A stretch of 42,690 bases of DNA, from assembly GCA_049800095.1 (NCBI GenBank), contig JBARJD010000044.1, forward strand, positions 1 to 42,690. Direction: 5' to 3'. The notes beneath the pieces were generated by a model. The model made no database searches and had not been told where the DNA came from. It saw nothing but the letters and a program-made list of their open reading frames with translations. The position numbers and the translations under genes were made by a program. This document shows positions 23,209-42,690 of the stretch, piece after piece. This stretch comes from Thermoplasmata archaeon (GTDB taxonomy: Archaea > Thermoplasmatota > Thermoplasmata > Lutacidiplasmatales > UBA184). Each line of letters opens with the position of its first letter. The first letter of the stretch is position 1.

Positions 23209-23257
23209 CCCTCACCCCCATCCGGCTAGCTTCAAAGTGACTTGCCCACTTCGTCAA
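23209..23257. repeat. Degenerate composite palindrome element
   Basis: (gt)GGGCAA actccc TCACCCC ...TTCAAAGTGAC TTGCCC ACTT. It is collinear with the 38298..38347 element. Confidence 0.45.
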
Positions 23258-23634
23258 TCGGGACTGGAAGGAGGGGGCAAACGTACGCCGGGCGCGCTGC
23301 CACTATGACAGTCTCGGGGTGTGGCAGGAGAGGGTAGACCGCTCGTGGACCTCTTGGGAGCTGGGTCGGGCAGAATCCGCATGTGACCTGCAAGTGCATG
23401 TGGGGCACAAGTGGAATCCTCGCAATCCGGACAATGTCCCGAATCGTTTCGATGTCATGCCCGGACTTTGGTTGAGTGGTTCAGCGTTCAGGATGACGCA
23501 CACCCTGCCCCGAGGAGCTTCAAGTCAATTCCGAACTGAAGTCACCGGAAAGCAGGGGTGATTGACAGCGACGCCCGTCGCACCTTCCATCGGGGCAGAA
23601 TGCTACCTATCTCGGAACGGTTCCACAATGGCCT

Positions 23635-24657
23635 ATGGGCCAGTCTCGGAGTCAGAATACAAGTTTGGGGACTTCTAGACCCCCCAATGACTACCCAAAG
23701 GGGCGTCCCGCGATTGACCGGCGAGCTCGTCGAGGCACTCGAAATGGGGCGCGATTCAAACCAGAGGGCCAATCCGGGAGACGAACTTGGAGTGGGGCCG
23801 TAGAGCAGTTTATCGCATGGAAACGGAACGAAGGTCGCGTCGGCGAATCTTGGCTTGTCCGGATGCGCTGGGAGTTGCTGCGAGTGCCAACGCTTCTCCG
23901 ACATGTCGCGCCCAAAATCTTGACTCCAACTCCGAGCCGCTTGCAACCGGACGACATCCGAGCACTAAGACGCGGTCTTCCTTGGGAACGTGCGACCTGG
24001 GCGGTCCATCTGTCGGCGCTCCGGCAGTTCCTCCGTTGGACCGGAAACCCGTGCGCCAATCAGACACCTCTATGGGCTCTTCCCACCGGAGAACCCAGCC
24101 ACCGTCGTTGGATTTCCAAAGACCAGCTCTTGCGTTTGGTTCGGAAAGCTCGGGGACCGGAGAAAATCCTGGTCTGCCTGGAGGGGCTCAACGGTCTTCG
24201 GCGAGTTGAAGTTCTTCGGCTTCGTTCAAAGGATGTGCTGTTCGACGAGGGTGCACTGCGGATTCTCGGCAAGGGGCGGTATGGTGGGAAATGGCGAACG
24301 ATTCCGATGCACCCTGCGACGCGTGCGGCCCTCGCGAAGTGGCTCAAGACCAAGGAAAGTGCCGACCTCGTATTGCCCCTATCACGATCTGGGGTTGACG
24401 CCATCTTGCGCCGTTTGGCGCTTCGGTCGGGATTCGATATGAAGTTGAGCAAGGTCTCTCATCATGATCTTCGCCGGACTTTTGGCCGCCTCTCCCATCG
24501 AGCCGGCATGAGCCTCGTGCAGCTGAAGAATCTCTACGGCCACAGCTCTCTCGACCAAACCGCCGGCTACATTGGCCTGGATCGGGACGAGATGCGGGAG
24601 GGGCTCGAACGATTTGCCCGAAGCCTGACGTCGCCGTCGCCTCCCAATCGGCAATAG
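23635..24657 (+). CDS. Tyrosine recombinase / phage-integrase family (XerC/D-like)
   Basis: Catalytic signature is intact: ...GLRRVEVLRL (R), GKGRYGGKWRTIP (K), HHDLRRTF (HxxR), LYGHSSLDQTAGYI (H..Y). The first 55 aa or so are Arg/Gly-rich low complexity and the true start is uncertain. Confidence 0.85.
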   Translation: MGQSRSQNTSLGTSRPPNDYPKGRPAIDRRARRGTRNGARFKPEGQSGRRTWSGAVEQFIAWKRNEGRVGESWLVRMRWELLRVPTLLRHVAPKILTPTPSRLQPDDIRALRRGLPWERATWAVHLSALRQFLRWTGNPCANQTPLWALPTGEPSHRRWISKDQLLRLVRKARGPEKILVCLEGLNGLRRVEVLRLRSKDVLFDEGALRILGKGRYGGKWRTIPMHPATRAALAKWLKTKESADLVLPLSRSGVDAILRRLALRSGFDMKLSKVSHHDLRRTFGRLSHRAGMSLVQLKNLYGHSSLDQTAGYIGLDRDEMREGLERFARSLTSPSPPNRQ

Positions 24658-24714
24658 AAAACTATTGGAGGCCCTTGACCAGCCCCGCGACCAACCGCAC
24701 TCGTCGGTCGCCGA

Positions 24715-24734
24715 GTTGCAATGGAAGTTGCACC
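24715..24734. repeat. Intergenic palindrome (1 mismatch, reversed spacer class)
   Basis: GtTGCAA tggaag TTGCACC. Confidence 0.8.
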
Positions 24735-24877
24735 TTCGGGCTGCTCAGCCCAGCTTTGGGGCGCCTCACAAAAACCCTCATTTGAAAAGGCTTAGGTCAT
24801 ACTACAGTCGGTTGGGCAGCGGGAGCCCATGGGCGCGTATTGAACCCGCTTTGAACATGAGTCCCCCGGGCCGGAAC

Positions 24878-24884
24878 TTAATCT
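24878..24884 (+). promoter_or_regulatory. TATA-like box of cyclase paralog 3
   Basis: CTTAATCTAACGGG, about 25 nt upstream of the GTG at 24906. It is nearly identical to the paralog-1 box. Confidence 0.6.
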
Positions 24885-24905
24885 AACGGGAGCGGTCACC
24901 GGCTC

Positions 24906-26858
24906 GTGGCCGGGAACCGCCGACTCGTCGCGATAATGTTCACTGACACTGTGGGCTACACCGCCTCGACCCAAAATAACGAGGCCCGTACGCTCGACCT
25001 ACTCCGCCAGCAGGAGGAGCTCGTCCGCCCACTAGTGGGCCATCACCAGGGTCGGGAAGTTAAGTCAACCGGGGACGGATTCTTGGTCGAGTTCGACAGC
25101 GCGCTCAAGGCCACCCAGTGCGCGGTGAACATCCAACGGCGGATCTACGAGCGTAATGCGGAGGGGACCCTCCCTCCGATCCAGATCCGGATCGGCATTC
25201 ACTTAGGAGATGTAGTGCAGAGCGGCACGGACGTCTTCGGGGATACCGTGAACATCGCCGCCCGCATCGAACCCATGGCCGAGCCGGGAGGGATTTGCGT
25301 GTCGGGCGCGGTGTACGATCAGGTCCGGAACAAGATTCCCGACAAGCTCGAGAAGCTGCCGCCGACGGCCCTCAAAGGTCTGCAGAGCCCCATGGACATC
25401 TACCGGGTTGTGCTGCCGTGGACCGTCGGCGAGCGGTCCTCCGAGAACTCGAGCTCCTCCCCGCTTGACAAGAGCCGGATCGCCGTCCTCCCGTTCGTAA
25501 GCATGAGCCCGGACCCGAACGACGAATACTTCGCGGATGGGCTCACCGAGGAACTGATCGCGGACCTGGCGCTCATCAAGGGACTTCAGGTGGTCGCCCG
25601 GACCTCCGTCATGAATTACAAGAAGAAAGGGAAAAACATCTCGGAGATTGGAAGGGAGCTCGGCGTCGGCACCGTGATCGAAGGGAGTGTACGGAAGGCA
25701 GCGAACCGAATCCGGGTTACGGTCCAAATGATCGATGTGGCCACGGAAGGACACCTGTGGGCGTCGAAGTACGACGACAGCCTCGACGACGTCTTCGCGG
25801 TGCAGACCGACATTGCTACGAAGGTGGCTGAATCCATCCCTAGGAGCCTTTCCACAACGAAGGCCCCGGTTCCGGCGCCGGAAGAGACCCGGGATGTGCA
25901 AGCCTACCTATCGTTTCTCCAAGGGCAGGCCACCGCGTACCGGCACGAGGAGGAACCGTTGAGGCAATCCTTGGGATTTTTCGAAAAAGCCGTGGAGAGA
26001 GACCCGGCGTTTTCCAGGGCATATGCCGCAACAGCGAGGGTTTACATCCGGCTGGGCTACGAAGGGTTCCTCTCATGGACCGAGGCCATTGACCTCGGAA
26101 AAGCCGCGGCTGAGAAGGCGCGTTCGATCAGCCCCGGTCTGGCCGAGGCGCACTCCGTCCTGTCGGAACTGGCCTTCCTGGCGGACGACCCGATTGAGGT
26201 GCAAGAGGGGGAGGCGAAGAAAGCACTGGAGCTCAATCCCAACCTCGCCGAGGCTCACAATATGTTGGGGCAGATTGCAGGAATGCTCGGGGAGCTAGAA
26301 CCCTATGTCGATCACCTCGAGAGGGCGTACCGTTTGGATCCGCTGTCACCAGCCACCATCAGAGAGCTCGGAAGGGCCTACTTCTACGCGGACCGAGGAG
26401 AGGATGCCCTGGAACTTTGGAAAAGGACGCTCCGTATCGACCCGATCAACTCCCTCCGTGGAATGACCGACTATTACGTTGCGAAGGGCGACCTGGTAAA
26501 CGCCGGCGCCACGGTGGTGGAGATGGAGAGGATTGGGCCGAGTAACAGGTTTACACTTCTGAGCCGCGGGTACCTCGCCGCCCTTCAGGGGGACAAATCG
26601 ACCGCGATGGAGATGGTCAAGAAGCTTGAATCGGGGCGCGACCCGGGAGCCGTAGGACGCTGGCGAGATGCGGGCGTTATCTATCTGGCCCTCGGCGATG
26701 CGGACAAATTCTTCGAGTACATGTTTGACGCGGCGAAGGCACGCGATTTGGCGCCAAACTACCTCAGGTACCATCCGCTGTTCGCCCAAGTCCGGAAGGA
26801 CCCGCGGTTCGTCCAACTCCTCTCGCCCTTTGTGCGCCCGGTCCGCTCCCCTACCTAG
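24906..26858 (+). CDS. Class III cyclase - TolB-N-like - TPR protein (paralog 3)
   Basis: MAGNRRLVAIMFTDTVGYTAS..KSTGDGFLVEFDS..GDTVNIAARIE, then the TolB-like segment and TPRs, ending in ...RKDPRFVQLL. Confidence 0.9.
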   Translation: MAGNRRLVAIMFTDTVGYTASTQNNEARTLDLLRQQEELVRPLVGHHQGREVKSTGDGFLVEFDSALKATQCAVNIQRRIYERNAEGTLPPIQIRIGIHLGDVVQSGTDVFGDTVNIAARIEPMAEPGGICVSGAVYDQVRNKIPDKLEKLPPTALKGLQSPMDIYRVVLPWTVGERSSENSSSSPLDKSRIAVLPFVSMSPDPNDEYFADGLTEELIADLALIKGLQVVARTSVMNYKKKGKNISEIGRELGVGTVIEGSVRKAANRIRVTVQMIDVATEGHLWASKYDDSLDDVFAVQTDIATKVAESIPRSLSTTKAPVPAPEETRDVQAYLSFLQGQATAYRHEEEPLRQSLGFFEKAVERDPAFSRAYAATARVYIRLGYEGFLSWTEAIDLGKAAAEKARSISPGLAEAHSVLSELAFLADDPIEVQEGEAKKALELNPNLAEAHNMLGQIAGMLGELEPYVDHLERAYRLDPLSPATIRELGRAYFYADRGEDALELWKRTLRIDPINSLRGMTDYYVAKGDLVNAGATVVEMERIGPSNRFTLLSRGYLAALQGDKSTAMEMVKKLESGRDPGAVGRWRDAGVIYLALGDADKFFEYMFDAAKARDLAPNYLRYHPLFAQVRKDPRFVQLLSPFVRPVRSPT

Positions 26859-26914
26859 AAGGGTTCCGGTTGCAGGTTCGACCTCCCAGGGGTCCGGAAA
26901 CCGACCGTTTCAAA

Positions 26915-26934
26915 CGTGCAACGGAAGTTGCACC
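26915..26934. repeat. Intergenic palindrome (1 mismatch, reversed spacer class)
   Basis: cGTGCAA cggaag TTGCACC. Confidence 0.8.
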
Positions 26935-27020
26935 GTTGCCGACGGCGTAGAGTGATCAGACATGAGTCTTAATCCGGGAATCTAGCAGCGTGAAGGGATG
27001 CGATGAAAACTTACGTATAG

Positions 27021-27182
27021 GAAAGTTTCTCGCATCGCAGAGTCACTGAATCCACGCACGAGATTTACATCGAAATGGACCTGGAAGACGTCTGGGACTT
27101 CGTCCGATCTGAACTGACAGGTATTCGTCGGCTACTTGACCGCGCAGTGTTCCCCGATGTTTCTGAAAGCAAGCCCCGGTGA
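27021..27182 (+). pseudogene. 3' remnant of a hepT (DUF86/HEPN toxin) gene
   Basis: My translation: ...THEIYIEMDLEDVWDFVRSELTGIRRLLDRAVFP..*. Intact HepT at 35952..36296 reads ...VHEYVEVDLEDLWTFVRDELPGIRRLLDRAVLP*. 21 of the 26 residues from DLED onwards are identical. An in-frame TAG at 27018..27020 bounds the remnant upstream. Confidence 0.6.
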
Positions 27183-27204
27183 TTGGATCAAACCTCCCAG
27201 TGGG

Positions 27205-27225
27205 GGTCGCAACGGAGAATGCACC
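27205..27225. repeat. Degenerate palindrome copy downstream of the hepT remnant
   Basis: GGTcGCAA cggaga aTGCACC. Confidence 0.45.
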
Positions 27226-27273
27226 CGAATTCCCGCGAGCGAGAGTAGGTGAGTCCCCGGAGATTTTCTTCAC

Positions 27274-27852
27274 TCAACCCGTTGACGACAGTGCCCTTGC
27301 GGCGGGTGCTTCAGTGCGTCGACGAAGCTCGAGAACCAAATCATCCGCCAAGTCCCTCTTGGTAAGCTTGGATACGTAGTCCCAATCGATCACGCCGGAA
27401 TATTCGGTGGCAAGGGCCACGGCTTGGGCGAACAATTGATTAGAATTTCTCGGCCAAACTTTGGCCCCGATGAGCCGCTTAGCGATCAAGTCCTCGACCG
27501 CGGCTAGATGAACTGGACCGTACGGCGTCGACACCTCCCCCAATCGGGCTTCATCACCGGCATAATGCGTTCCGACCGGATCGACCCATAGCTTCAATTC
27601 AGGCCGAGACCAGAACCATCCCTTACGACTAAAGCCCCACTCCTCCAGAATTTCAATGAGGGCCTTGCGATTACCGACTAAGTCCACATCGTCTGAAACA
27701 TACTTTCCGCTTGTGTAGACTTCGATGGCCGAGCCACCTACGATCACAACCCCCGTCCTCGCCGCACGCGCCAGCAGTGCGCCAAGCCAGAGGTTTCTTT
27801 CAGAGCGATCCTTGGCCCTTTCAAGGGTTGCCCTTAGCTCGTCCGCGTTCAA
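27274..27852 (-). CDS. Minimal nucleotidyltransferase-fold protein (AbiEii-like / DUF2204-like), pair 1
   Basis: VVIVGGSAIEVYTSGKYVSDDVDLVG fits the pol-beta NTase pattern G[GS]-x(9-14)-DxD. The gene overlaps the upstream wHTH gene by 4 nt (ATGA). Confidence 0.6.
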   Translation of the reverse strand: MNADELRATLERAKDRSERNLWLGALLARAARTGVVIVGGSAIEVYTSGKYVSDDVDLVGNRKALIEILEEWGFSRKGWFWSRPELKLWVDPVGTHYAGDEARLGEVSTPYGPVHLAAVEDLIAKRLIGAKVWPRNSNQLFAQAVALATEYSGVIDWDYVSKLTKRDLADDLVLELRRRTEAPAARALSSTG

Positions 27853-28334
27853 CGGGAGGTCCGATTTGTTCGGACGGAGGTCCGAGCCCCAGCCTTCGCG
27901 AGAACGGCATCCTTCTGACTTCGTCGTCGGATCTCATTGGCCGAAGGGGTACGGCCAGGTTTGAACTTGGACAAATCCAAGGGATCTCGTGCGCTCCTCT
28001 GCATGGCCATTGCGGCGCGCCGCTCTCGTTCTTGCGCACCGCGGGTGAGATCTTGGCTCCAAACGACTCGAAGGCGTCGGCGCAGGAGGGTCTTCAAGTC
28101 CGGGTCCACCACTACCCACCCATCCTGATTCTCTGGAGTGGGGGCCTTTTCGACCTCATGGAATAGGAGGAGCCGTTTTAGTTCCCGATAGACATTTGGC
28201 GGTTTAATCCCCACAATCGTGGCAACGCGGTACGCCGTAAGGGGGGCGGATGCGTTGGCTAGAGCGGCAAGTGTCCGTACGCGGTCCTCCGATCCGAAGA
28301 GCGTCGCAAGTCCGGGATCTACTGTAAGTGTCAT
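27849..28334 (-). CDS. Winged-helix DNA-binding protein (AbiEi-like antitoxin/regulator), pair 1
   Basis: LFGSEDRVRTLAALANASAPLTAYRVATIVGIKPPNVYRELKRL is a wHTH-like N-terminus. The C-terminal tail is basic. Confidence 0.6.
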   Translation of the reverse strand: MTLTVDPGLATLFGSEDRVRTLAALANASAPLTAYRVATIVGIKPPNVYRELKRLLLFHEVEKAPTPENQDGWVVVDPDLKTLLRRRLRVVWSQDLTRGAQERERRAAMAMQRSARDPLDLSKFKPGRTPSANEIRRRSQKDAVLAKAGARTSVRTNRTSR

Positions 28335-28341
28335 GATGATG

Positions 28342-28362
28342 TATTAGTCATATTGACTAATA
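28342..28362. promoter_or_regulatory. Perfect 9-3-9 palindrome overlapping the promoter of the 28334 wHTH gene (candidate operator)
   Basis: TATTAGTCA tat TGACTAATA, 8-28 nt upstream of the ATG, in an AT-rich spacer. Confidence 0.6.
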
Positions 28363-28524
28363 ACGATAACGGGTCTGTCACTGCTTAAGGGTTTCTAAAA
28401 TTTTGATGAAAGTCGGGCCCAGTCCTAAGAAGTACGCAAGTACAAACTTGAGTCTAAGGAACTGTATGAACCAGTGAAGTAACGCCAATGTGGAATTGGT
28501 CTCGAGGTACTGCACCCTGCATAA

Positions 28525-29529
28525 CATTCGAGCACAGAGCTAGATCTGTTCAATTCCTCCGGGACCTACGAGATGACCGATGGCCTCCTTCAGGGTGATT
28601 GTTTCAAAGTCATCGTCGCTCTAAAGTACTTCGAAGAGGCCAATCGAATAGACCCGACGTTCTCGCTGCCCTACGCCCGCCGGGCGCACAGTTACATCAT
28701 TCTTTCATCGGAGACCATGAGCCCCGGCGAGGCTTTCACCCACGCCAAGGAACTCACTTCTAAAGCGCTCCAACTCGACCCCAATTCCTGCGAAGTGCAC
28801 TCCGCCTTGGGCAACTCGGCGCTTCAGCAGGATCGGGACTGGGTTATGGTCGAACAGGAATTCAAGAATGCCACCTCGCTCAATCCAAGCAGCATAGTCG
28901 TTTGGAATTGGCATGCCGTGCTCCTGCGCGTCCTCTGTCGATTTGACCAAGCCATCGGGGAACTAAACACGGGCGTAGAGCTCGATCCGTTGACGAGAGA
29001 ATCCCAATCGGGCCTCTGCTTGGTGCACTAAATACGCGGAGACGACGCGGTTGCCCTTGCCCTCGCTGAAAAACTCCGAGACAGCGCGCCCCACAATCCC
29101 TTTTCTCATATTCGAGTGGGGTACAGTTACGCACGGGCAGGACGCTTGGAGGAGGCGCGTCATGAAATCGAACTGGTGAAAGGACCGTTCGCAGAAAGTC
29201 TGCTCGCGTTCAAAGTGGCGCTCCAAGCGATATTGGGTCAACCCGAAGAGGCTCGGCGACTGGCCAATGAGAGCGAGGATCGAGGCTCCAAGAAGTACGC
29301 TAGCACAACCGATACGGCGATTTTGTACGCCTCCCTGGGAGAAAAGGAGAAGGTTTTGGAGTGGTTCGAGATAGATCAGCAATCGGGAGATCGAGGGCTC
29401 TGGAACGGGTACCAGTTTCCCGTCTTCGATTTCGTCCGTGACGATCCAAGGTTTGAGTCGCTGCTCAGACGGATGAACCTCCCCACCGGTTGGCGCGGCA
29501 TCGGGGGACCCATTGGTCCGGCCCGCTGA
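28525..29529 (+). pseudogene. 5'-truncated, nonsense-interrupted TPR half of a fourth cyclase-TolB-TPR paralog
   Basis: Track ORFs 28573..29031 and 29116..29529 are in the same frame and are separated only by the TAA at 29029..29031. The sequence is collinear with the C-terminal approx. 300 aa of the paralogs (KYFEEANRIDPTFSLPYARRAHSY... through DDPRFESLLRRMNL). No cyclase or TolB-like part lies upstream. Confidence 0.7.
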
Positions 29530-29679
29530 CCGAGGGTCCGCGCGGCCGAACGTCGACTCACAACGCCACGTGGGGGCCCTCGTGGTTGTAATTGGGACTT
29601 CACTCCGGGAAGGTCCGGATGGGCCTAAATCGAGGAACCTAGTGCTAACGCGTTATGGCCTCGAACGGCTTCACCGGAC

Positions 29680-30318
29680 GTGGATGACAGCGTCCCGTTT
29701 TTCAAGCAAACCATGTTGGGAAGCTGCGGCCCGGCCTGCGTCCAGATGGTCCGCGGCTGGCTTGCGGGTTCTACCGCCGTCCGGGCGAGATCGGACCTAG
29801 GTCCGTGGACCCGCAGCTGGATTTTCCCATTCGGGATGACGGAATCGTATGGCCTGGCCGTTCTTCTGGCGAGATCTGGCGCGCGGGTGACCGTCTTTAA
29901 GGAGCGCCCGGGATTTCACTTCCACCCCGAAACCGGGACATTTTTTGACGTCGTCGGTTCGGCTTTTGGTTACCTCGGACGTCCACTGGCTCGGATCCGG
30001 AGGTGGCAAGCCCGCCGACAGGGCATCCAGGTTTCCATTGGTCCCCTCACCGTAGCACGCCTTGGGGAACCCGATACCTTGGGTCGTCCGGCGATCGTGA
30101 TGGTGAACCAGGGGGCGTACGCGCCCGACCCGGACTTTCCGTCCGGCGTCTTACATTGGGTGGTCGTCACCGATTTCGACGCCACGGGGGTCCGGTTCCA
30201 TGACCCCGATCTGGGGCCGAACCAACGACTTTCTCGGAGCGATTTCGACAAAGCCATGGACGTTCGTTCCTTTGGGATCGACCGCCAGATGGTCCTAACT
30301 GACCGGGGCCCGTCCTGA
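29680..30318 (+). CDS. Peptidase C39-like (papain-fold cysteine peptidase) domain protein
   Basis: QTMLGSCGPACVQMV (Cys motif) and VLHWVVVTDFDATGVRFHDPD (His motif) resemble C39-family peptidases. The start codon is uncertain. Confidence 0.5.
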   Translation: MDDSVPFFKQTMLGSCGPACVQMVRGWLAGSTAVRARSDLGPWTRSWIFPFGMTESYGLAVLLARSGARVTVFKERPGFHFHPETGTFFDVVGSAFGYLGRPLARIRRWQARRQGIQVSIGPLTVARLGEPDTLGRPAIVMVNQGAYAPDPDFPSGVLHWVVVTDFDATGVRFHDPDLGPNQRLSRSDFDKAMDVRSFGIDRQMVLTDRGPS

Positions 30319-35904: not shown

Positions 35905-35951
35905 TTTCAACGAGCGCCGTGACTGAGTCAGTGGGACTTATTCTCGGAATC

Positions 35952-36296
35952 CTAAGGCAAGACAGCCCGATCGAGCAAACGACGAATTCCTGGCAGCTCA
36001 TCTCGGACGAAGGTCCAGAGGTCTTCCAGGTCAACTTCGACGTACTCGTGCACTAGACCACGGTTCCGCAATCTGCTGAGCCGTTCCCACGGAACTCGAG
36101 GGTTGAGGTTCTTGAAAGCTGGAGACGTTTTTTCGGCTGACTCTGTAAAGTGAATCAAGTCGAGAAGTACGGCCTTTTGGGCGAGTCCGCGCAGTAGAAA
36201 CATCGCCTTTCCTCCCGCAGCGTCACGTTTTGCTTCCTCAGCAGCCTCCGTCATCGCGGTCACCCGCAGCTTATCGCGCATCGATTTGCTGGTCAT
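35952..36296 (-). CDS. hepT: HepT-type HEPN toxin (DUF86)
   Basis: RNRGLVHEY matches the RX4HXY motif of DUF86 toxins. The gene overlaps mntA by 4 nt. Confidence 0.85.
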   Translation of the reverse strand: MTSKSMRDKLRVTAMTEAAEEAKRDAAGGKAMFLLRGLAQKAVLLDLIHFTESAEKTSPAFKNLNPRVPWERLSRLRNRGLVHEYVEVDLEDLWTFVRDELPGIRRLLDRAVLP

Positions 36297-36757
36297 AGTG
36301 GAACCGCCTCGGCAACGACCTGCGGCTGGATGAACCAGTGCAGACTATCTTCGGTAGCGACGTCGACGTGGCGGCCCAGCAGCGTCTCCAAGTCCTGAGC
36401 TAGGTCCAACGTCCGGAGTTTGGACTTTGCTGCCTGGGATCGATCAAAGTCAACGAGAAGATCGATGTCGCTCTTCGGCGAGGCGGCCCGCCTAGCGAGG
36501 GAACCGAAGACACGGATCTCGCGAACATGGTAGCGCTGTGCGATTCGTTCGATTCTCGTAAGGTACGGCCCTAGGACTTGCTCGATGCCAAGCCCATCCC
36601 CCCGAGCAGGGACTCGAATCCTTGGCTCGTCCCAGTACGGCGACTTGCAACGCGGGCAGATCCGGACAACCTGCCCCCGAGGAGTCCAGGAGTTACCGCA
36701 TCTGTAACAATGGAGTTCAGGAATGGCGATTTCGTGCATATTCCCGCTATCCGCCAT
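36293..36757 (-). CDS. mntA: MntA-type minimal nucleotidyltransferase antitoxin with N-terminal zinc ribbon
   Basis: CYRCGNSWTPRGQVVRICPRC zinc ribbon, followed by VFGSLARRAASPKSDIDLLVDF (the GSx10-11DxD NTase motif). Confidence 0.85.
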   Translation of the reverse strand: MADSGNMHEIAIPELHCYRCGNSWTPRGQVVRICPRCKSPYWDEPRIRVPARGDGLGIEQVLGPYLTRIERIAQRYHVREIRVFGSLARRAASPKSDIDLLVDFDRSQAAKSKLRTLDLAQDLETLLGRHVDVATEDSLHWFIQPQVVAEAVPL

Positions 36758-36856
36758 ATGTTAAAAACTTACGTATAAGTAAGTAATGTAAGGTGTCCGC
36801 ATTCGGTAAACTCCTGAGCAATGGTCCACGCATCGCCTTCCATCGCGTCGGCGAGG

Positions 36857-36877
36857 GGTGCAGTTCCCATTGCAACC
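36857..36877. repeat. Intergenic palindrome (variant arms)
   Basis: GGTGCAg ttccca TTGCAaCC. Confidence 0.7.
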
Positions 36878-36960
36878 TTCCGGGCGAGCTTCAAGATCGA
36901 ATCGCAGACAGGTGAAAAGCAACAATGGTCATTCCCCGTGCCGCTGTCGGCTAGAAATAC

Positions 36961-36966
36961 TTTAAA
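36961..36966 (+). promoter_or_regulatory. TATA-like box of TA cassette 1
   Basis: aaatacTTTAAAgggcc, 35-40 nt upstream of the ATG at 37001. It is duplicated at 37681. Confidence 0.55.
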
Positions 36967-37000
36967 GGGCCTAACCCCATAGTGTCTATGGGAGTGGGCT

Positions 37001-37213
37001 ATGGGGGCCACGAGTATCTCGGTTTCTCAAGAGACGCGCAAGCTGCTGGAGAGTCTAAAGACCGGAGGCGAAACGTATGATGACGTAATCCGCGGCCTCA
37101 TCATATCCCATCCGAACCGGCTGACGATGGCAGAGCTATCCCGGAGGATCCGGGAAGGGCACCGCCATCCAATCGAGGAACTGATATCGAAGAGCCGCCA
37201 CCAACCCTACTGA
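37001..37213 (+). CDS. Small antitoxin (PF02697-like), tandem copy 1
   Basis: MGATSISVSQETRKLLESLKTGGETYDDVIRGLI... Confidence 0.75.
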   Translation: MGATSISVSQETRKLLESLKTGGETYDDVIRGLIISHPNRLTMAELSRRIREGHRHPIEELISKSRHQPY

Positions 37214-37220
37214 GAACGCA

Positions 37221-37553
37221 GTGCCGTTCCGGATTGTCTCGATTGATGAGGCCGACGGAGAGTTTCTAAGTTTGCCGCCAGCGGTGCGTGAAGTCTTCAT
37301 CGCGGCTTTTCGGGAGCTGGCCGCATCCGATGCCCCGGTCATGCGTGGGAATGACTGGTACACCGAGGAGCTCCGCCAGAATCAGCGGATCGCCCCAGGC
37401 GGCTTGTTCTCGCTCCATGTCGGAGCACTTTGGCGGGCAGCATTCTTTCGCGACAAGGACACACTCGTCTTCATCGGGTTCGGCTACCGAGTCCCTGAGT
37501 TCTATGACAGGCTCGCGCGACTCCGAAAATCGCTGGACTCCCGCACCGAGTGA
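37221..37553 (+). CDS. RelE/ParE-superfamily-like toxin, tandem copy 1
   Basis: 110 aa with a GTG start 8 nt after the antitoxin stop. ...LFSLHVGALWRAAFFRDKDTLVFIGFGYR resembles the RelE/ParE C-terminal sheet. Confidence 0.6.
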   Translation: MPFRIVSIDEADGEFLSLPPAVREVFIAAFRELAASDAPVMRGNDWYTEELRQNQRIAPGGLFSLHVGALWRAAFFRDKDTLVFIGFGYRVPEFYDRLARLRKSLDSRTE

Positions 37554-37577
37554 CTACATCCTCCCGGTCTTTCGGAA

Positions 37578-37597
37578 GGTGCAACCCCCATTGCACC
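37578..37597. repeat. Intergenic palindrome, perfect copy
   Basis: GGTGCAA ccccca TTGCACC. The flanks extend the pairing (cggaa...tttccg). Confidence 0.9.
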
Positions 37598-37680
37598 TTT
37601 CCGCGCGCGGTAAATCTCAAAGGACAGTCGGTCCGATATGAATGAAGATCTGTCCCAACGTCGTTGTCGACTAGAGATAC

Positions 37681-37686
37681 TTTAAA
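37681..37686 (+). promoter_or_regulatory. TATA-like box of TA cassette 2
   Basis: agatacTTTAAAgggtcc. Confidence 0.55.
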
Positions 37687-37720
37687 GGGTCCAATCCAAT
37701 AGCGCCTATGGTAGAAGGCT

Positions 37721-37933
37721 ATGGGGGCCACTAGTATCTCGGTTTCTCAAGAGACGCGCAAGCTCTTGGAGAGTCTAAAAACGGGAGGCGAAACTTATGA
37801 TGACGTAATCCGGGGCCTCATCATTTCCCATCCGAACCGACTGGCGGTGGCAGAGCTATCCCGCAGGATCCGGGAAGGGCACCGTCATCCGATCGAGGAA
37901 CTGATAGCGAAGAGCCGCCGTCAACCCTACTGA
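37721..37933 (+). CDS. Small antitoxin, tandem copy 2
   Basis: 66 of 70 residues identical to copy 1. Confidence 0.75.
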   Translation: MGATSISVSQETRKLLESLKTGGETYDDVIRGLIISHPNRLAVAELSRRIREGHRHPIEELIAKSRRQPY

Positions 37934-37940
37934 GAACGCA

Positions 37941-38273
37941 GTGCCGTTCCGGATTGACTCGATTGACGATGCCGATGCGGAGTTTCTAAGTCTGCCGCCC
38001 GCGGTCCGTGAGGTCTTTATCGCAGCTTTCCGGGAGCTGGCCGCATCCAATGCCCCGGTCCTTCGTGGAAATGGGTGGCACACCGAGGAGCTTCGTCAGA
38101 ATCAGCGGATCGCCCATGGCGGTTTGTTCTCGGTGCATGTGGGAGCCCTTTGGCGGGGAGCATTCTTTCGCGACAGGGACGCACTCGTCTTCATCGGATT
38201 CGGCTTCCGGGTACCCGAGTTCTACGACAAGCTCGCGCGACTCCGAAAGTCTCTAGACGGCCGAACCCAGTGA
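37941..38273 (+). CDS. RelE/ParE-superfamily-like toxin, tandem copy 2
   Basis: 94 of 110 residues identical to copy 1. Confidence 0.6.
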   Translation: MPFRIDSIDDADAEFLSLPPAVREVFIAAFRELAASNAPVLRGNGWHTEELRQNQRIAHGGLFSVHVGALWRGAFFRDRDALVFIGFGFRVPEFYDKLARLRKSLDGRTQ

Positions 38274-38297
38274 GAATATCTTCCGTATCTCGCAGAA

Positions 38298-38347
38298 GAT
38301 GCAATCCCCCTTGCACCCGAACGGCTTCATTCAAAGCGACTTGCACC
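38298..38347. repeat. Composite element: palindrome (1 mismatch) plus an extra TTGCACC half-site 30 nt downstream
   Basis: GaTGCAA tccccc TTGCACC cgaacggcttca TTCAAAGCGAC TTGCACC. Confidence 0.75.
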
Positions 38348-38626
38348 TGCGCCGACGATCGGCGAAGGTATTGGCAAGCCAGGATTACCTAGACCGATTC
38401 CCAGCCTAGACTCTAGGGCGAGGTCAAGCTCATTCAACAAGTCCCATAATCTCGAATTATTCCGGATAAGCGCGGGCCTCGGATCGATTCGAACCTGCTG
38501 CAACGAAACACCCTTCTCTAACCTGCGAAAACATTCGTCGAGGTCACCAATCTCATCGAGCAACGTGTGAGGCCCTGCCCGAGGTCGCGTGGGCCACTCC
38601 GAATCGATCTGAGCTGTGAAGGGCAT
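38327..38626 (-). CDS. Hypothetical protein (weak call)
   Basis: 99-aa ORF starting 3 nt after the cupin stop. Its 3' end overlaps the composite repeat, and no family was recognised. Confidence 0.3.
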   Translation of the reverse strand: MPFTAQIDSEWPTRPRAGPHTLLDEIGDLDECFRRLEKGVSLQQVRIDPRPALIRNNSRLWDLLNELDLALESRLGIGLGNPGLPIPSPIVGAGASRFE

Positions 38627-38629
38627 TTC

Positions 38630-39109
38630 CTAAAGTGGATCGGACTCCGAGAGGGGCGGTCCGACCACTTTCATGAAGGCCCGCTCCGCGATGGCCCGGT
38701 AGGCCTCCGGGGCGAACCCTCCGGGCGGTTGCGTGGCCATTTCTTCGAAGAACCTCTCCATGCCCGACGGAACGAACATCTCGAGGTACCGGGCCGGAAC
38801 GCTACCGATGTTCTGGAGACAATGGGGCGTACCCCGAGCAACAAAGACAAAGGATTCCGCGGGTGCCCGAAAGATCTCTTGGTCCGCCTTGAACCGAAGT
38901 TCTCCTTCAAGGACAAACCACATCTCGTCCTCTCGGACATGGACGTGGAGCGGGGGGCCAGCCCCGGGCGGAACCCGGTGTTCGAGCAGGGTGAAGGTTC
39001 CATCAGTGGTCTCGGCACGCGCCTTGATTAGACTCGATAACCCAGATGGCCCCGGAATGACTTGACCCCCGCCCGACAGAACCAGAAACGCGCGGCTCCG
39101 CTCGACCAT
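38630..39109 (-). CDS. Cupin-domain protein
   Basis: GAGPPLHVHVREDEMWFVLEGELRF...ARGTPHCLQN are cupin motifs 1 and 2. Confidence 0.8.
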   Translation of the reverse strand: MVERSRAFLVLSGGGQVIPGPSGLSSLIKARAETTDGTFTLLEHRVPPGAGPPLHVHVREDEMWFVLEGELRFKADQEIFRAPAESFVFVARGTPHCLQNIGSVPARYLEMFVPSGMERFFEEMATQPPGGFAPEAYRAIAERAFMKVVGPPLSESDPL

Positions 39110-39312
39110 CTTTGCACCCGAAACCCCTGACCGCGCTTAGTCTACTTGAACGCGAGCCTTTGCGAGTTCCGGGTCCAACCGTTCCGCCTTCGTTCGTGGG
39201 GGAATCCAGAACCCGTCCTTATGGAACCCAAGGCCTTTCAACGTTAGATTGGCTTCAGAAGGCGGTCGAACGGTGACCCCTGGATGTGTCCGCTTCGAGC
39301 TGCCAGAGACAA

Positions 39313-39332
39313 GCGTGCAACCTCCATTGCAC
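39313..39332. repeat. Intergenic palindrome (1 mismatch)
   Basis: cGTGCAA cctcca TTGCACC. Confidence 0.8.
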
Positions 39333-39441
39333 CTAAAGTGTTCCCGGAGATTCTCAGCAGGGCGCTCGGCCCGGGGTCTGTTTCCGTTCGTCCTCCCTCG
39401 CTTTAGAAATTCTTAAGTCCAATTGTCCCAATTGGTAACCG

Positions 39442-39660
39442 ATGCTGACCGATCCCCCAACGACTATCACCATCCGGAGTTCCACCCTCCGCAGTCTCTC
39501 GCTGTACAAGGTTGGCGGAAAGTCCTACGATGAGGTCTTGAAGGGCCTGATGGAAGAGGTCCCCCCCGAGTCGTTTCTCCGGTGGGCAAAAGACGAATTG
39601 AAGCGCCCGACTCAATCTCTGGTTCAAATGAGGAAGTCCTTGGGTCTCTCTGAGCCCTGA
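39442..39660 (+). CDS. Small antitoxin (PF02697-like)
   Basis: MLTDPPTTITIRSSTLRSLSLYKVGGKSYDEVLKGLMEEVPPE... Confidence 0.75.
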   Translation: MLTDPPTTITIRSSTLRSLSLYKVGGKSYDEVLKGLMEEVPPESFLRWAKDELKRPTQSLVQMRKSLGLSEP

Positions 39661-39929
39661 TGCCCAGGGTACGTTTCTCGCCCGAGGGCGGGCACTCCCT
39701 CCGCAAACTACCGCAATTGTACCTTGAGAAGTTCAACACGGCCTTTTCTATCATTGAGGCGGGCGGTCCAGGAGCTGCCCAAGTCGACACCCATCCTCTC
39801 TCGGGCAGTCAGCAGCTGTGGACCCTCCGCATCGGACCATACCGGGGCGTATTTCGATGGGACGGCGATGAGGCGCGATTCATCCGGTTCGGCCACCGAC
39901 GTTCGGTTTACCAACGCCTCCCCAAGTGA
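39660..39929 (+). CDS. RelE/ParE-family toxin
   Basis: TGATG overlap with the antitoxin gene. ...QLWTLRIGPYRGVFRWDGDEARFIRFGHR. Confidence 0.8.
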   Translation: MPRVRFSPEGGHSLRKLPQLYLEKFNTAFSIIEAGGPGAAQVDTHPLSGSQQLWTLRIGPYRGVFRWDGDEARFIRFGHRRSVYQRLPK

Positions 39930-39968
39930 CGAATCCCGAGGCGGTAGTGCGAAACAGACAGGGGACAG

Positions 39969-39988
39969 GGCGCAATTTCCATTGCACC
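39969..39988. repeat. Intergenic palindrome (1 mismatch)
   Basis: GGcGCAA tttcca TTGCACC. Confidence 0.8.
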
Positions 39989-40065
39989 CCTGGCCCCTCG
40001 ATGCCGAGGCTGAACTAGACCCGGCAAAGACCATCTCGCCCGCCGACATACCATAAAACCAAGAG

Positions 40066-40812
40066 ATGGGAGAATACCTCGATGCAAACGGCCTGAGGAC
40101 CTATTTTGAGCGGCGTGGGTCCGGCGACCCCGTTCTGTTGCTCCACGGAGGGGGAGGGACCGCTGAATCACTTACAGCGCTTGCAGACATTCTCGCCGAA
40201 CACTACGAAGTACTGATTCCTGAGAGAAGATGGCACGCTAGGACGGCTTGTGTCGGAAAGGAACTGACCTACGAGGTCATGGCCGAAGACACGATCGCCT
40301 TCATGGACCGACTCGGAGTTACAGATGCGCACCTGATTGGCCAAAGCGATGGGGCCAACGTTGCCCTGCTTACTGCAGTTCAACGCCCAGACCACGTTCG
40401 GAAACTCGTGTTAATGGGTGGCAATTTCAACACGGACTATTTATCGTCCGAATCGAGAGCCTGGCTGAAGGGACTCTCTCCTGAGATTGCACGACAGGTC
40501 TTTCCATCGGTGGTCGACCTGTACTTCAATGTCACCCCCGACGCCGAGGCGCGATTCCCTGTCCTTCTCCAGATGCTTGGAAACCTCTACGCATCTGATT
40601 GGAGGATCCCGACCATGAGTCTTGAAGGAGTTGCGACCAAGACTCTGGTAATGGCGGGGGATAGAGACTCAGTCCCGATCGCACACACCCTGGAGTTGTT
40701 CCGATCAATCCCAAATGCCCAGTTGTGCGTGGTCCCGGAAGCCGACCACGAATTTGCTCGAAAAAAGCCGGAATTGATAGGACCCATCATTGTACGCTTC
40801 CTTGGGTCGTAG
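40066..40812 (+). CDS. Alpha/beta hydrolase
   Basis: VLLLHGGGG..., nucleophile elbow IGQSDGA, and C-terminal ...VPEADHEF. Confidence 0.88.
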   Translation: MGEYLDANGLRTYFERRGSGDPVLLLHGGGGTAESLTALADILAEHYEVLIPERRWHARTACVGKELTYEVMAEDTIAFMDRLGVTDAHLIGQSDGANVALLTAVQRPDHVRKLVLMGGNFNTDYLSSESRAWLKGLSPEIARQVFPSVVDLYFNVTPDAEARFPVLLQMLGNLYASDWRIPTMSLEGVATKTLVMAGDRDSVPIAHTLELFRSIPNAQLCVVPEADHEFARKKPELIGPIIVRFLGS

Positions 40813-40862
40813 CTAACGCTCCATTCTGCCGTGTGGTTGAAATTCAGGCATGAGTGCAATCC

Positions 40863-40883
40863 CCATTGCAACCAGACTACTCC
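40863..40883. repeat. Intergenic palindrome (variant arms)
   Basis: aGTGCAA tcccca TTGCAaCC, preceded by CATG. Confidence 0.7.
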
Positions 40884-40980
40884 CAGAGACGCCCGACGCG
40901 ACGTTCGTTCCCGGGTCAAGTGCGGCCCACCCTCCGTTCTCACAGAAACTGTCAAGTCCAACTGCTCCAATAGGACTGTA

Positions 40981-41199
40981 ATGTTGGCCGATCCTCCGAC
41001 GACTATCACCATCCGGAGTTCGACCCTCCGTAACCTCTTGTTGTACAAGATCGGCGGCAGGTCGTATGATGAGGTCCTGAGAAGCCTCATGGAGGAGGTC
41101 CCTCCCGAGTCGCTTCTTCGATGGATGAAAGAAGAGCTAAAACGTCCGACCCGATCGTTGGCGCAAGTCAGGAAATCCCTGGGTCTTCCTGAGCCCTGA
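40981..41199 (+). CDS. Small antitoxin (paralog of 39442)
   Basis: MLADPPTTITIRSSTLRNLLLYKIGGRSYDEVLRSLMEEVPPE..., taken from the internal Met of track ORF 40831..41199. Confidence 0.75.
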   Translation: MLADPPTTITIRSSTLRNLLLYKIGGRSYDEVLRSLMEEVPPESLLRWMKEELKRPTRSLAQVRKSLGLPEP

Positions 41200-41294
41200 T
41201 GCCCCGGGTCCGCTTCTCGCCAGTGGGGAGTCGGTCCCTCGGCAAGCCCAGGTGCAGTCATGGTACTATGCCTTCGCAAGTAGCATTCTGACCC
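41199..41294 (+). pseudogene. Truncated RelE/ParE toxin remnant
   Basis: Same TGATG junction as at 39658. MPRVRFSPVGSRSLGKP... parallels MPRVRFSPEGGHSLRKLP of 39660, then diverges and stops after 31 codons. Confidence 0.55.
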
Positions 41295-41575
41295 GGTGGA
41301 AGGTGTGGCTCACGCCGCCGTCGCCGATTCTTCGTGGAAGTCCGCCCCCACCGGGATAGCGCATTCCGGAAGCCGCCGAAGACTTCCCGCCCGCAGGGGC
41401 CCTTCCTGGGGCCTCCCGAGGCGAAATCCCAGTGTAAAGCATGGAAGGTCCCAACAATCGAAAGTCCGTTGGGTAGATTTCCGCGTTCGGGGTGCGTCGC
41501 ATCCTGCAACTCTTTGGGGTGAACTGAGTCGGGTCGCAGCGGACCTTGCAAAGGGAGAGGTGGTCGCGGAGTGCT

Positions 41576-41597
41576 CATATATTCGTACATATATTCG
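41576..41597 (+). promoter_or_regulatory. Direct repeat CATATATTCG x2 in the AT-rich promoter region of the wHTH-MNT gene
   Basis: CATATATTCG ta CATATATTCG, ending 12 nt before the ATG at 41609. Confidence 0.5.
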
Positions 41598-41608
41598 ATA
41601 AATCAATC

Positions 41609-42202
41609 ATGCGCTTCCACAACGAGTTCGATGACATTCTCGGAAATCGTATCCGACTCCGACTGCTTCGCATACTAGCCCGAACGGGGGGCCAGGGTCT
41701 AACCGGACGCGAGTTGGCCCGGATGTGCGGTGCGTCCTCATCACAAACGATCGCCTCGCTCCAACGCCTGGAGGACTCTGGTCTAATCCTGCGTGACATC
41801 GCCGGCCGCGCCCACATCTGGCGGTTTGCGGATGGGCATGCTCTCGGCCCAGTCCTGACGAGTCTCTTCAGGGCGGAGGCCGAATCTCTTACCACCCTAA
41901 AGAAGGACATCGAGAGTGTAATTCGGAACTTACCTGTCCACCGAGCAGTCCTGTTCGGCTCCGTTGCCCGAGGAGACGAACGCCCTACCAGCGACGTGGA
42001 CCTCCTCGTCGTGGTCCGATCTCGCGCTGACAAAGGGAGGGTAGAGGAGGCGCTGGGCGCGGCCAGTATTGACTTCGCAACCAAGTTTGGGAACCCGCTC
42101 TCGTCCCTGGTGATCGAGGAGAGGCAGCTGCGCTCTCCCCCCAACCCATCACTGTTGACGAACATTCGCCACGACGGGGTCGAGCTGGAGACGAGTGCTT
42201 GA
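41609..42202 (+). CDS. Winged-helix - minimal nucleotidyltransferase (MNT) fusion protein
   Basis: RIRLRLLRILARTGGQGLTGRELARMCGASSSQTIASLQRLEDSGLI (wHTH), followed by LFGSVARGDERPTSDVDLLVVV (NTase motif). The start is taken at the internal Met (MRFHNEF). Confidence 0.8.
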   Translation: MRFHNEFDDILGNRIRLRLLRILARTGGQGLTGRELARMCGASSSQTIASLQRLEDSGLILRDIAGRAHIWRFADGHALGPVLTSLFRAEAESLTTLKKDIESVIRNLPVHRAVLFGSVARGDERPTSDVDLLVVVRSRADKGRVEEALGAASIDFATKFGNPLSSLVIEERQLRSPPNPSLLTNIRHDGVELETSA

Positions 42203-42621
42203 CGCCGTCTCGCATCGAGGTTCTCCCTAAAGACCGGGGGGCAGTCTATCTGCGACGAGCCGAGAATCTCCTGAAAGTGATGGAGGTCGCGGATGAGGCA
42301 GGGAACCCAGATGGGATTGTTACTAACGCGGTCCAGGCCGGGATTGCTCTAGGGGATGCCTACACGGTATCATTGGTCCGGCGGCGAAGCCGCGGTCAAG
42401 ATCACAGCGAGGTCCTGCTCTTGGTGCGTGAATGCCCATCTCCGAGCACCCCTGAAGTGAGCAGTCTTCTTCAACGCATCCTGAACCGCAGGAGCGAGCT
42501 TCTGTATGAGAGCCGAGATGTCTCGCTTCGACAGGCTCGGGAACTCGCAAACCTCGCCCGCAAGCTACATTCGGCCGTCCGGTCGGCGATCTCGTCACCT
42601 TCAACGAGCTTAGGGAAGTAA
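42199..42621 (+). CDS. HEPN-domain protein (putative cognate toxin)
   Basis: TTG start overlapping the MNT stop by 4 nt. Helical, with RSRGQDH fitting Rx4-6H. Confidence 0.65.
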   Translation: MTPSRIEVLPKDRGAVYLRRAENLLKVMEVADEAGNPDGIVTNAVQAGIALGDAYTVSLVRRRSRGQDHSEVLLLVRECPSPSTPEVSSLLQRILNRRSELLYESRDVSLRQARELANLARKLHSAVRSAISSPSTSLGK

Positions 42622-42665
42622 TCGGTAACCCAACCGGGGAGCTGCTTCCGGCCGAAGGAGCCTTG

Positions 42666-42685
42666 GGTGCAATCAACCTTGCACC
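42666..42685. repeat. Intergenic palindrome, perfect copy
   Basis: GGTGCAA tcaacc TTGCACC, followed by CACTT as in the 3222 copy. Confidence 0.9.
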
Positions 42686-42690
42686 CACTT

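Follow-up and report, generated by a model that had tools for sequence, protein, structure and literature searches.

A tyrosine recombinase and a repeated palindrome in the same window

The stretch of DNA described here, 42,690 nucleotides from a Thermoplasmata contig and hereafter called the window, carries a tyrosine recombinase gene (positions 23635 to 24657, plus strand; 340 amino acids) among many small accessory genes. Distributed between these genes are copies of a 20-bp palindrome, GGTGCAA-N6-TTGCACC. We examined the distribution of this element in the window and in related loci, and we consider below the possibility that its copies are recombination sites that bound mobile gene modules.

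A scan of the whole window (42.7 kb, ~59% GC) for this motif, allowing up to two mismatches, identifies 18 copies, five of which are perfect. By comparison, dinucleotide-shuffled versions of the window contain 0.09 copies on average and never more than 2. Alignment of all copies defines a conserved element of 20 to 22 bp, R-GGTGCAA-N6-TTGCACC-Y, beyond which there is at most a weak GTG/CAC extension. The two arms are identical inverted copies, giving a 7-6-7 arrangement, or 8-6-8 if the flanking R and Y are counted. The 6-bp distance between the arms is specific, as other spacings return just isolated, weak matches with three mismatches. The suggestion of a first-pass annotation that two 7-bp inverted arms around a 6-bp spacer fit the geometry of a simple tyrosine recombinase core site is thus consistent with the data. 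Rfam and tRNA scans of the window gave no matches and no tRNA genes.

Four of the sites reside in the left part of the window (3222–19231), in agreement with the earlier observation that copies also occur in its first 20 kb. These are a perfect site with the spacer GATGCG (3222–3241), a site with two mismatches (spacer TTACCA) in the gap where PKD and cyclase-TPR genes converge (7817–7836), a site with the spacer CGACTA beside an aldo-keto reductase unit (18332–18351), and a second perfect site with the spacer ACTGAC (19212–19231). The two mismatches of the third site keep its palindrome intact (GGTGCAT…ATGCACC), and a degenerate second site is located 14 bp from it. The remaining 14 sites lie to the right of the integrase gene (24715–42685), along with two additional copies that carry three mismatches. 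The first of these right-hand sites (24715–24734, spacer TGGAAG) begins 58 bp past the integrase stop codon, and a site is found in the same position after the integrase genes of the related loci L004, L008, and L129. It is followed by a site whose spacer, CGGAAG, matches that of its predecessor at five of six positions in direct orientation (26915–26934), a three-mismatch copy downstream of an HTH-pair unit (27206–27225, CGGAGA), a site between convergent C39-like and ParE genes (30395–30414, TGCGAC), a perfect site (31038–31057, TCGGCA) and the other three-mismatch copy (32938–32957, TCTCCA), both located by the motif scan, a site 3′ of a gene for a 104-amino-acid protein (34029–34048, CAAACC), and a site in a divergent intergenic region (34548–34567, CATCGC).

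Further to the right is a run of seven co-oriented sites with spacers of the YYCCCA type. The run begins at 35885–35904 (ACCCCA) and continues with a site in a divergent intergenic region (36857–36876, TTCCCA), a perfect site located 24 bp past a toxin stop codon (37578–37597, CCCCCA), a site accompanied by a degenerate second copy at 38328–38347 (38298–38317, TCCCCC), another site in a divergent region (39314–39333, CCTCCA), and two sites located by the motif scan (39969–39988, TTTCCA; 40853–40872, TCCCCA). A perfect site with the spacer TCAACC (42666–42685) marks the end of the window. The gene calls for L252 favor a minus-strand open reading frame (ORF) at 42323–42690, running past the window end, over the plus-strand ORF at 42199–42621 that had been read as HEPN. 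If the minus-strand ORF is real, then this last site is intragenic. Neither ORF has a family match.

The recombinase gene is intact, as originally annotated. Its product matches PF00589 with an E value of 1e-15, and the catalytic R-K-H-R-H-Y set is complete when the protein is aligned with XerA of P. abyssi (4a8e), with R, K, HxxR, H, and Y all in register. The protein scores 81.9 bits against the NCBIfam model XerA_Arch (NF040815), for which the cutoff is 220, and hence is not a XerA equivalog. Its score against the integron integrase model TIGR02249 is 28.2 bits, where 265 is required and only residues 161 to 240 are covered, and the model NF011946 returns 17 bits against a cutoff of 435. 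The nearest solved structures are those of XerA and XerH, and IntI4 (2a3v) is a marginal, partial match (E value 1.7e-4). Because the XerA and IntI scores fall below their cutoffs and the best solved relatives are XerA and XerH, we classify the enzyme by sequence as a Xer-like integrase that belongs to neither the XerA nor the IntI family.

Exact copies of this integrase were found only in three Logan contigs, all identical to the window. Homologs with 78 to 89% identity are present on metagenome contigs of up to 991 kb from JGI, ENA, and NCBI, and the next tier, at ~55% identity, includes proteins named "Thermoplasmata archaeon." No viral relative was found in the viral collection. The integrase gene is bracketed by inverted, paralogous cyclase-TPR genes (21096–23015, minus strand; 24936–26858, plus strand), and both of these match a single cyclase-TPR gene of L004, with DNA identities of 87% and ~72%. 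A third full copy is present at 7864–9798 and remnants are present at 28573–29529. Cyclase-TPR genes recur in nearly all of the related loci.

Pfam matches, the site map, and the recurrence of units in relatives together delineate an array of ~14 modules of 0.5 to 3 kb between successive sites from 24735 to 42665. From left to right, these encode a cyclase-TPR protein; an HTH pair, TPR remnants, and a C39-like protein; a ParE pair; an FG-GAP protein; a second HTH-type pair; the 104-amino-acid ORF; TauE; HepT-MNT; two DUF7557 toxin–antitoxin (TA) units; a cupin; another ParE pair; an alpha/beta hydrolase; and an orphan antitoxin with wHTH-MNT. Most of the gene content proposed from the sequence earlier is confirmed by Pfam, including the cyclase-TPR, ParE/RelE, HepT-MNT, FG-GAP, TauE, cupin, alpha/beta hydrolase, and wHTH-MNT assignments. 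The labels "AbiE-like" and "hepT remnant" had to be abandoned, as they have no family support and the sole match is to a weak TrmB-type HTH. Similarly, the claim that one palindrome separates each unit from the next does not hold for some of the named boundaries. For instance, there is no site between the HTH pair and the TPR remnants, between these remnants and the C39-like gene, or at the junction of the orphan antitoxin with wHTH-MNT.

The DUF7557-antitoxin/110-amino-acid unit is present as a tandem duplicate (36962–37597 and 37682–38317) whose copies are ~85% identical and run from site to site, such that the sites at 37578 and 38298 form the ends of the first and second copies. A promoter-like TTTAAA box is located ~30 bp before the start codon in this unit. 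The orphan antitoxin region (40944–41245) is 77% identical to the antitoxin end of the ParE pair (39405–39706) and appears to be a module that is missing its toxin. The left 23 kb of the window encodes a CN-hydrolase, MscL, RibD_C, a PKD protein, a further cyclase-TPR protein, a GT2 glycosyltransferase, an M29 peptidase, and other proteins.

Spacer polarity and placement of the sites

The spacers of neighboring sites are related to each other, and this relationship has a direction. Adjacent sites agree at 2.79 of 6 spacer positions when compared in direct orientation versus 1.36 of 6 when one spacer is inverted. The corresponding value for sites from different loci is 1.65, and a control that reflects composition only gives 1.83 ± 0.09. 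A match at four or more of the six positions occurs in 37% of adjacent pairs versus 6% of pairs between loci (permutation p < 0.0005), and the result is unchanged when pairs less than 300 bp apart are removed. Spacer similarity declines with neighbor rank (2.79, 2.47, 2.38, 2.02, and 1.98) over ~1 to 9 kb, the decay taking about 6 to 9 kb, and direct identity exceeds inverted identity in 16 of 19 loci. Examples include the run CGACTG/CGACTC/CGACTA/CGACCG in L214, the run GAGGCG/GATGCG/GACGCG/GACGCA that extends across the integrase gene in L256, and the seven consecutive YYCCCA spacers at 35885–40853 of the window, which persist across genes of both orientations. Spacers do vary from site to site, as the first-pass annotation remarked when it counted this variation against recombination, yet those of neighboring sites are strongly similar and co-oriented. 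An attempt to orient all sites by expectation-maximization toward a common spacer consensus was rejected, since only a weak Y-G start is held in common.

Identical neighbors are lacking. Among 121 adjacent pairs, none match at all six positions, 16 match at five, and 29 differ at two positions. When all ~500 pairs within loci are considered, a single pair is identical, compared to 41 pairs that match at five positions. By our own estimate, a simple decay model fitted to the classes with four and five matches predicts ~4 identical neighbors (Poisson p ~0.02).

These patterns indicate that the sites are polar and that the arrays are runs of direct repeats with recent common ancestry. Insertion by a tyrosine recombinase duplicates the att core, and direct-repeat runs with similar spacers would result if DNA entering an existing site left a second copy of it behind. 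Likewise, a deficit of identical neighbors is expected if identical, co-oriented sites recombine and thereby delete the DNA between them. In dif modules, recombination has been seen only between sites whose 6-bp spacers are identical or nearly so (PMC13141974).

The position of the sites relative to genes was evaluated in seven loci with gene tables, which together hold 70 sites. All but five of these (65/70) lie between genes. A site is present in 18 of the 29 gaps between convergent genes, in 31 of the 69 between tandem genes, and in 12 of the 30 between divergent genes, with median distances of 63 bp to a stop codon and 130 bp to a start codon, and none is located less than 46 bp from a start. 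Since gaps of all three kinds are occupied, the sites mark the boundaries of units and not 3′ ends alone. A role purely as a terminator does not fit the occupied divergent gaps, just as a role purely as an operator does not fit the occupied convergent gaps.

We also considered the possibility that the element is maintained as a hairpin. As RNA, its stem-loop would be stable (−12 to −16 kcal/mol). However, among 51 sites with two mismatches, both changes fall in the same pair in six, versus 5.1 expected, and only three of these six retain Watson–Crick pairing. Complementarity of the flanks slightly exceeds that of a shuffled-partner control, and only out to 4 bp. A selected hairpin was rejected on the basis of these covariation and extended-stem tests, which gave no excess or a marginal one. 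The site at 37578 has a 12-bp stem, a feature that is not general among the sites. No consistent T-run follows the sites upon inspection of the aligned flanks, and an intrinsic terminator was rejected on this basis, together with the occupied divergent gaps and the missing compensatory excess. Conservation extends beyond pairing to the sequence itself, even between genera with integrases of just 54% identity. Because the arm mismatches are independent and the sequence is kept across genera, the sites look like the target of a dimeric protein that reads two half-sites on double-stranded DNA, rather than a selected fold.

Sites and gene order in related loci

The element is not confined to the window. 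Related loci contain 137 sites in 273 kb (0.5 per kb), where ~1 would be expected by chance. The relatives L004, L008, L129, L130, and L131 carry 10, 6, 7, 9, and 8 sites, respectively, on both sides of their integrase genes, and L256, a locus from a 2.18-Mb contig whose integrase is 54% identical, carries 12. A scan of metagenome contigs for perfect sites revealed at least 27 or so further loci of the lineage with two to seven sites each, and judging from their JGI sample identifiers, we take these contigs to be from peat and soil metagenomes. In these motif-selected loci, every gene beside a site is of accessory type, with products that include hydrolases, NmrA/ADH-type reductases, cyclase-TPR proteins, HTH regulators, methyltransferases, and TA pairs. 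The equivalent scan of genome contigs mostly returned chance matches and, among the matches listed, only L046 and L103 are from the lineage. L046, a contig from a Thermoplasmata metagenome-assembled genome in GTDB, shares one gene with the window at 84% DNA identity. Together with the integrase homologs, this identifies the host as an uncultured Thermoplasmata archaeon.

Two groups of matches are of a different nature. In four unrelated metagenome contigs (L168, L173, L203, and L226), a perfect palindrome is centered in an inverted duplication longer than 3 kb, which could be a fold-back assembly artifact or a hairpin end and is not related to the Thermoplasmata lineage. Among viral contigs (L266 to L385), 76 of the 120 matches listed correspond to a single conserved phage sequence, GGTGCAATAGCTGTTGCACC, in one orientation or the other. 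This phage 20-mer dominates the viral matches and has no connection to the archaeal site.

Comparison of gene order suggests that the units between sites behave as modules. In five relatives whose integrase genes are 76 to 87% identical to that of the window, the integrase is flanked to its left and right by different genes. Units of the window recur elsewhere in another order or orientation, often with the site at their 3′ end retained. These include the HTH pair, the cupin, the DUF7557 TA pair, the second HTH-type pair, and a gene for a 369-amino-acid protein that is found in three contexts. The aldo-keto reductase gene lies upstream of the integrase in the window, and lies inverted and directly after the integrase in L004, and two sites enclose the 104-amino-acid unit in L256 as well as in the window. 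The cassette-like character first attributed to these units of one or two genes is supported by their shuffling between relatives.

In some instances, homology begins or ends at a site. L129 and L130 differ from the integrase gene up to a site common to both, and become homologous again no more than 3 bp from the edge of that site. Several block ends coincide with sites in both of the genomes compared, the 104-amino-acid unit and the tandem TA duplicates being further examples. Orthologous sites can keep all 20 bases, spacer included, even though their flanks cannot be aligned. The GATGCG site at 3222 has an identical 20-mer at position 2478 of L004, and the ACTGAC site at 19212 is present with the same spacer at position 3341 of L004 and position 4202 of L131. 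Between these two conserved sites, L004 carries one MazE-PIN module of 0.86 kb where the window carries a variable segment of 16 kb (3242–19211). Immediately to the right of the ACTGAC site, a patch with the sequence CGGGAAAG[A/C]GC (window 19232–19245; L004 3361–3374) is conserved though the adjacent genes differ. An impression from gene tables that L004 and L005 differ by a cassette replacement was rejected, as their DNA is 99.98% identical.

Sites sometimes occur in pairs or triplets 10 to 110 bp apart in which one arm is commonly degenerate, as seen at 4787–4837, 18290–18351, and 38298–38347 of the window. Clusters in other loci are located at 7247–7354 of L149, 20785–20873 of L256, and 5265–5394 of L158.

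A proposed recombination model, its rivals, and known systems

The explanation that we favor, with a probability of about 0.45, is that the sites are recombination sites bounding mobile modules, arranged in an architecture nearer to that of dif modules than to that of an integron. We infer that recombination takes place at the sites, that crossover falls within the spacer, and that the integrase of the window is the enzyme responsible. In such a model, the window would be part of a chromosomal array, at least 40 kb in length, of small accessory modules (TA pairs, defense-type genes, and small enzymes) delimited by the lineage-specific 20- to 22-bp site. Each site would serve as the core site for a homodimeric tyrosine recombinase, with identical 7- to 8-bp arms and a 6-bp crossover region, and modules would be inserted, excised, and exchanged via recombination between spacer-matched sites. 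Insertion into an existing site would duplicate it, yielding co-oriented runs with near-identical spacers. Pairs that stay identical would keep recombining and vanish, such that surviving neighbors differ at one or two positions. Indeed, spacer polarity, the similarity of neighbors, and the lack of identical neighbors are all predicted by serial site-specific insertion and excision. The enzyme would probably be Xer-like but outside both the XerA and IntI families, and the integrase encoded at 23635–24657 is the candidate.

Several observations weigh against this model. An integrase homolog was found in only one (L192) of the ~27 motif-selected metagenome loci, among the matches listed, and sites are present on both sides of the integrase, reaching the ends of every 20- to 40-kb sample. 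Some junctions lack a site, including window 20337–21092 in comparison with L004 and the alternation of RibD_C and an acetyltransferase beside a gene for a 159-amino-acid protein, and homologous units are sometimes found with no site (L218 and L008). The 3′ site of the TA unit has the spacer TGGAAG at position 9003 of L129 and CCCCCA at position 37578 of the window, and its spacer is oriented oppositely relative to the gene. Such a reversal would not be expected from strictly polar recombination; the spacer goes with the local array rather than with the module. A homolog with 54% identity in L257, located among accessory genes in a genome of 72% GC, has no such site nearby, and we found no other repeated site of any kind around it. 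In L256, the core archaeal gene for RIO1 kinase (584–1981) is flanked by two sites only 9 kb from the integrase gene. No closely related strain pair was found with a single-module gain or loss and a breakpoint in the spacer, as searches for exact matches to the integrase, hydrolase, and MNT proteins yielded just the identical strain or no match at all. Moreover, the clusters of two or three sites, 30 to 110 bp apart, resemble those of repetitive extragenic palindromic (REP) sequences and bacterial interspersed mosaic elements (BIMEs), and are poorly explained by a module model and a terminator model alike. The genes neighboring RIO1 differ in each genus sampled (L256, L258, and L262) and, because of this, synteny in the lineage is judged to be low overall. 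The RIO1-anchored loci L258 to L265 contain no sites; these are from other genera with 65% GC, and hence are uninformative on the window's own genome.

A serious rival, although one we regard as less likely than recombination, is that the element is a lineage-wide, REP-like intergenic palindrome. It could be selfish or domesticated (as an insulator, a terminator, an mRNA-end stabilizer, or a site for a nucleoid protein) and would have spread by a process unrelated to the integrase, with gene shuffling having other causes. Sites that lie remote from any integrase gene, or to its left as well as its right, the BIME-like clusters, the flanking of RIO1, and the site-less integrase homolog in L257 all favor this explanation, as do the RNA stability of the stem-loop and a mild preference for 3′ ends that is evident in the median distances and in the high occupancy of convergent gaps. 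The same palindrome nevertheless shows no excess of compensatory changes, is conserved in sequence beyond pairing across genera, occupies 40% of divergent gaps, matches no Rfam family, and is followed by no consistent T-run. Genes beside sites in the motif-selected loci are without exception of accessory type. Furthermore, no transposase of the Y1 type (RAYT, the REP-associated tyrosine transposase, or IS200/IS605-type) was seen among the ~70 ORFs examined from the window and its relatives, and a REP-like element offers no obvious reason for polar spacers, similar neighbors, and missing identical neighbors. If the sites were instead operators for a global dimeric regulator or a chromatin protein that controls or silences accessory genes, then the independently conserved half-sites at a fixed spacing would be accounted for, as would the intergenic location of the sites, none of which comes within 46 bp of the start codon downstream. 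Such a function is improbable given that promoter distances range from 46 to more than 300 bp, that convergent gaps are the most often occupied, and that spacer polarity and neighbor similarity are left unexplained.

A further scenario, which strikes us as quite improbable, invokes non-autonomous, transposon-like modules with terminal inverted repeats of 7 to 8 bp (TTGCACC…GGTGCAA) that insert at module junctions and duplicate a 6-bp target, with the transposase encoded elsewhere. Each "site" would then be two abutting ends plus the duplicated target. This arrangement would account for arms that are exact inverted copies, for similar direct-repeat spacers beside a module whatever the orientation of its genes, and for the fact that no nearby integrase is required. 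Yet scans of the window and related loci turned up no transposase, isolated single ends are barely over-represented (9 versus 4 expected), and the identical 6-bp duplications that recent insertions should leave are absent from all 121 neighbor pairs. The 7-6-7 geometry and the resident Xer-like enzyme are a better fit to tyrosine recombination. To a canonical integron with IntI, attI, and attC cassettes we give almost no credence, even though a tyrosine recombinase is accompanied by an array of small, variable units rich in TA genes. The IntI score is far below its cutoff, the sites are simple 20-bp palindromes and not structured attC elements, and the integrase is flanked to its left and right by units of either orientation that contain promoter-like TTTAAA boxes. 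This candidate was rejected, as there is no IntI domain, no attC, no attI, and no one-sided array. The first-pass annotation had envisaged an integron-like platform; a layout of that kind, in which the integrase would sit at the edge of the array, is at odds with the occurrence of sites and variable modules on both sides and throughout every 20 to 40 kb sampled.

If the recombination model is correct, the most similar known arrangement is that of the Acinetobacter dif modules, in which pdif sites are found on Rep_3 plasmids (PMC6449649, PMC13141974). As in the window, these modules consist of one to a few accessory genes, very often TA pairs, between core sites composed of two arms around a 6-bp spacer. 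In both cases the spacers fall into few classes, a recombinase gene is not necessarily adjacent, and modules are shuffled, inverted, and replaced between relatives. Recombination of dif modules requires identical or near-identical spacers, and in the arrays described here spacer classes are common to neighbors and relatives. The differences are also substantial. The arms of pdif are distinct 11-bp XerC and XerD sites, whereas the identical, inverted 7- to 8-bp arms of the archaeal element imply one recombinase acting as a homodimer. Orientation alternates between C/D and D/C in dif modules, whereas neighboring sites here are co-oriented. In addition, dif modules reside on small bacterial Rep_3 plasmids and use the housekeeping XerC and XerD of the host. 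The arrays described here reside on archaeal contigs of 0.5 to 2.2 Mb, their candidate enzyme is distinct from the housekeeping Xer, and their recombination is proposed from sequence.

Other systems based on Xer enzymes or extragenic palindromes share fewer of these features. Tandem Xer-dependent integrations at dif by integrative mobile elements exploiting Xer (IMEX), such as the CTX/TLC arrays (reviewed in PMC5357621), also involve integrase-less elements that are inserted serially at a Xer-type site, each insertion duplicating the site. However, they depend on a single chromosomal dif and on host XerCD, whereas dozens of sites are present here and the enzyme is not a XerA equivalog. The archaeal XerA/dif system similarly involves one chromosomal dif, in contrast with dozens of sites per 40 kb and an NF040815 score below the cutoff. 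REP sequences and BIMEs are, like the element in the window, short extragenic palindromes of high copy number that are sometimes clustered and are more common near 3′ ends. A RAYT gene was not seen among the ~70 ORFs scanned, nor was a conserved 5′ tetranucleotide or evidence of selected pairing, whereas the polarity of the loop or spacer common to neighbors and the presence of sites in divergent gaps set the archaeal element apart.

The archaeal integrons known so far are canonical, with an IntI domain, attC, attI, and a one-sided array (Ghaly et al. 2022, PMC9668308). Resemblances to integrons include a resident tyrosine recombinase, small, mostly single-gene, TA-rich units with a recombination-type site at the 3′ end, sites that are alike within an array, and a content that differs between relatives while the integrase is conserved. 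Integron integrases possess an IntI-specific domain, whereas no domain or model match of this kind was found. An attC site is an imperfect palindrome of 55 to 140 nt with R″/L″-L′/R′ boxes that acts as a folded single strand and is conserved in structure, unlike the short, double-strand-type palindromes described here, which are conserved in sequence. Integrons also have attI with the promoter Pc and a one-sided array of mostly promoterless, co-oriented cassettes. None of these features is present, as sites and variable units flank the integrase on both sides in the window and in six relatives.

Our search of the literature found no description of the motif or of such arrays in Thermoplasmata. 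We tentatively propose that they represent a previously undescribed archaeal platform in which accessory and defense modules, in chromosomal arrays tens of kilobases long, are bounded by 7-6-7 sites, a single Xer-like recombinase acts on these sites, and the spacer sets polarity and partner compatibility. If the sites recombine, then a widespread Thermoplasmata lineage of peat and soil would have its own cassette system built on a 20-bp site that is easily recognized and synthesized. This would explain the very low synteny around the integrase and would offer a handle for cataloging the mobile pool of accessory and defense genes in uncultured archaea. A compact, single-recombinase system with a 6-bp spacer code for partner choice might also be of interest for genome engineering. 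The spacer statistics, namely polarity, neighbor similarity, and missing identical pairs, provide predictions that can be checked on existing long-read metagenomes. If the sites are instead genome-wide structural repeats, they would still constitute a REP-like family with a polar loop, the first of its kind to be described in the lineage. If the recombination model holds, the arrays would represent a third independent means of capturing and shuffling cassettes, alongside integrons and dif modules, and would be the first based on a minimal palindromic site.

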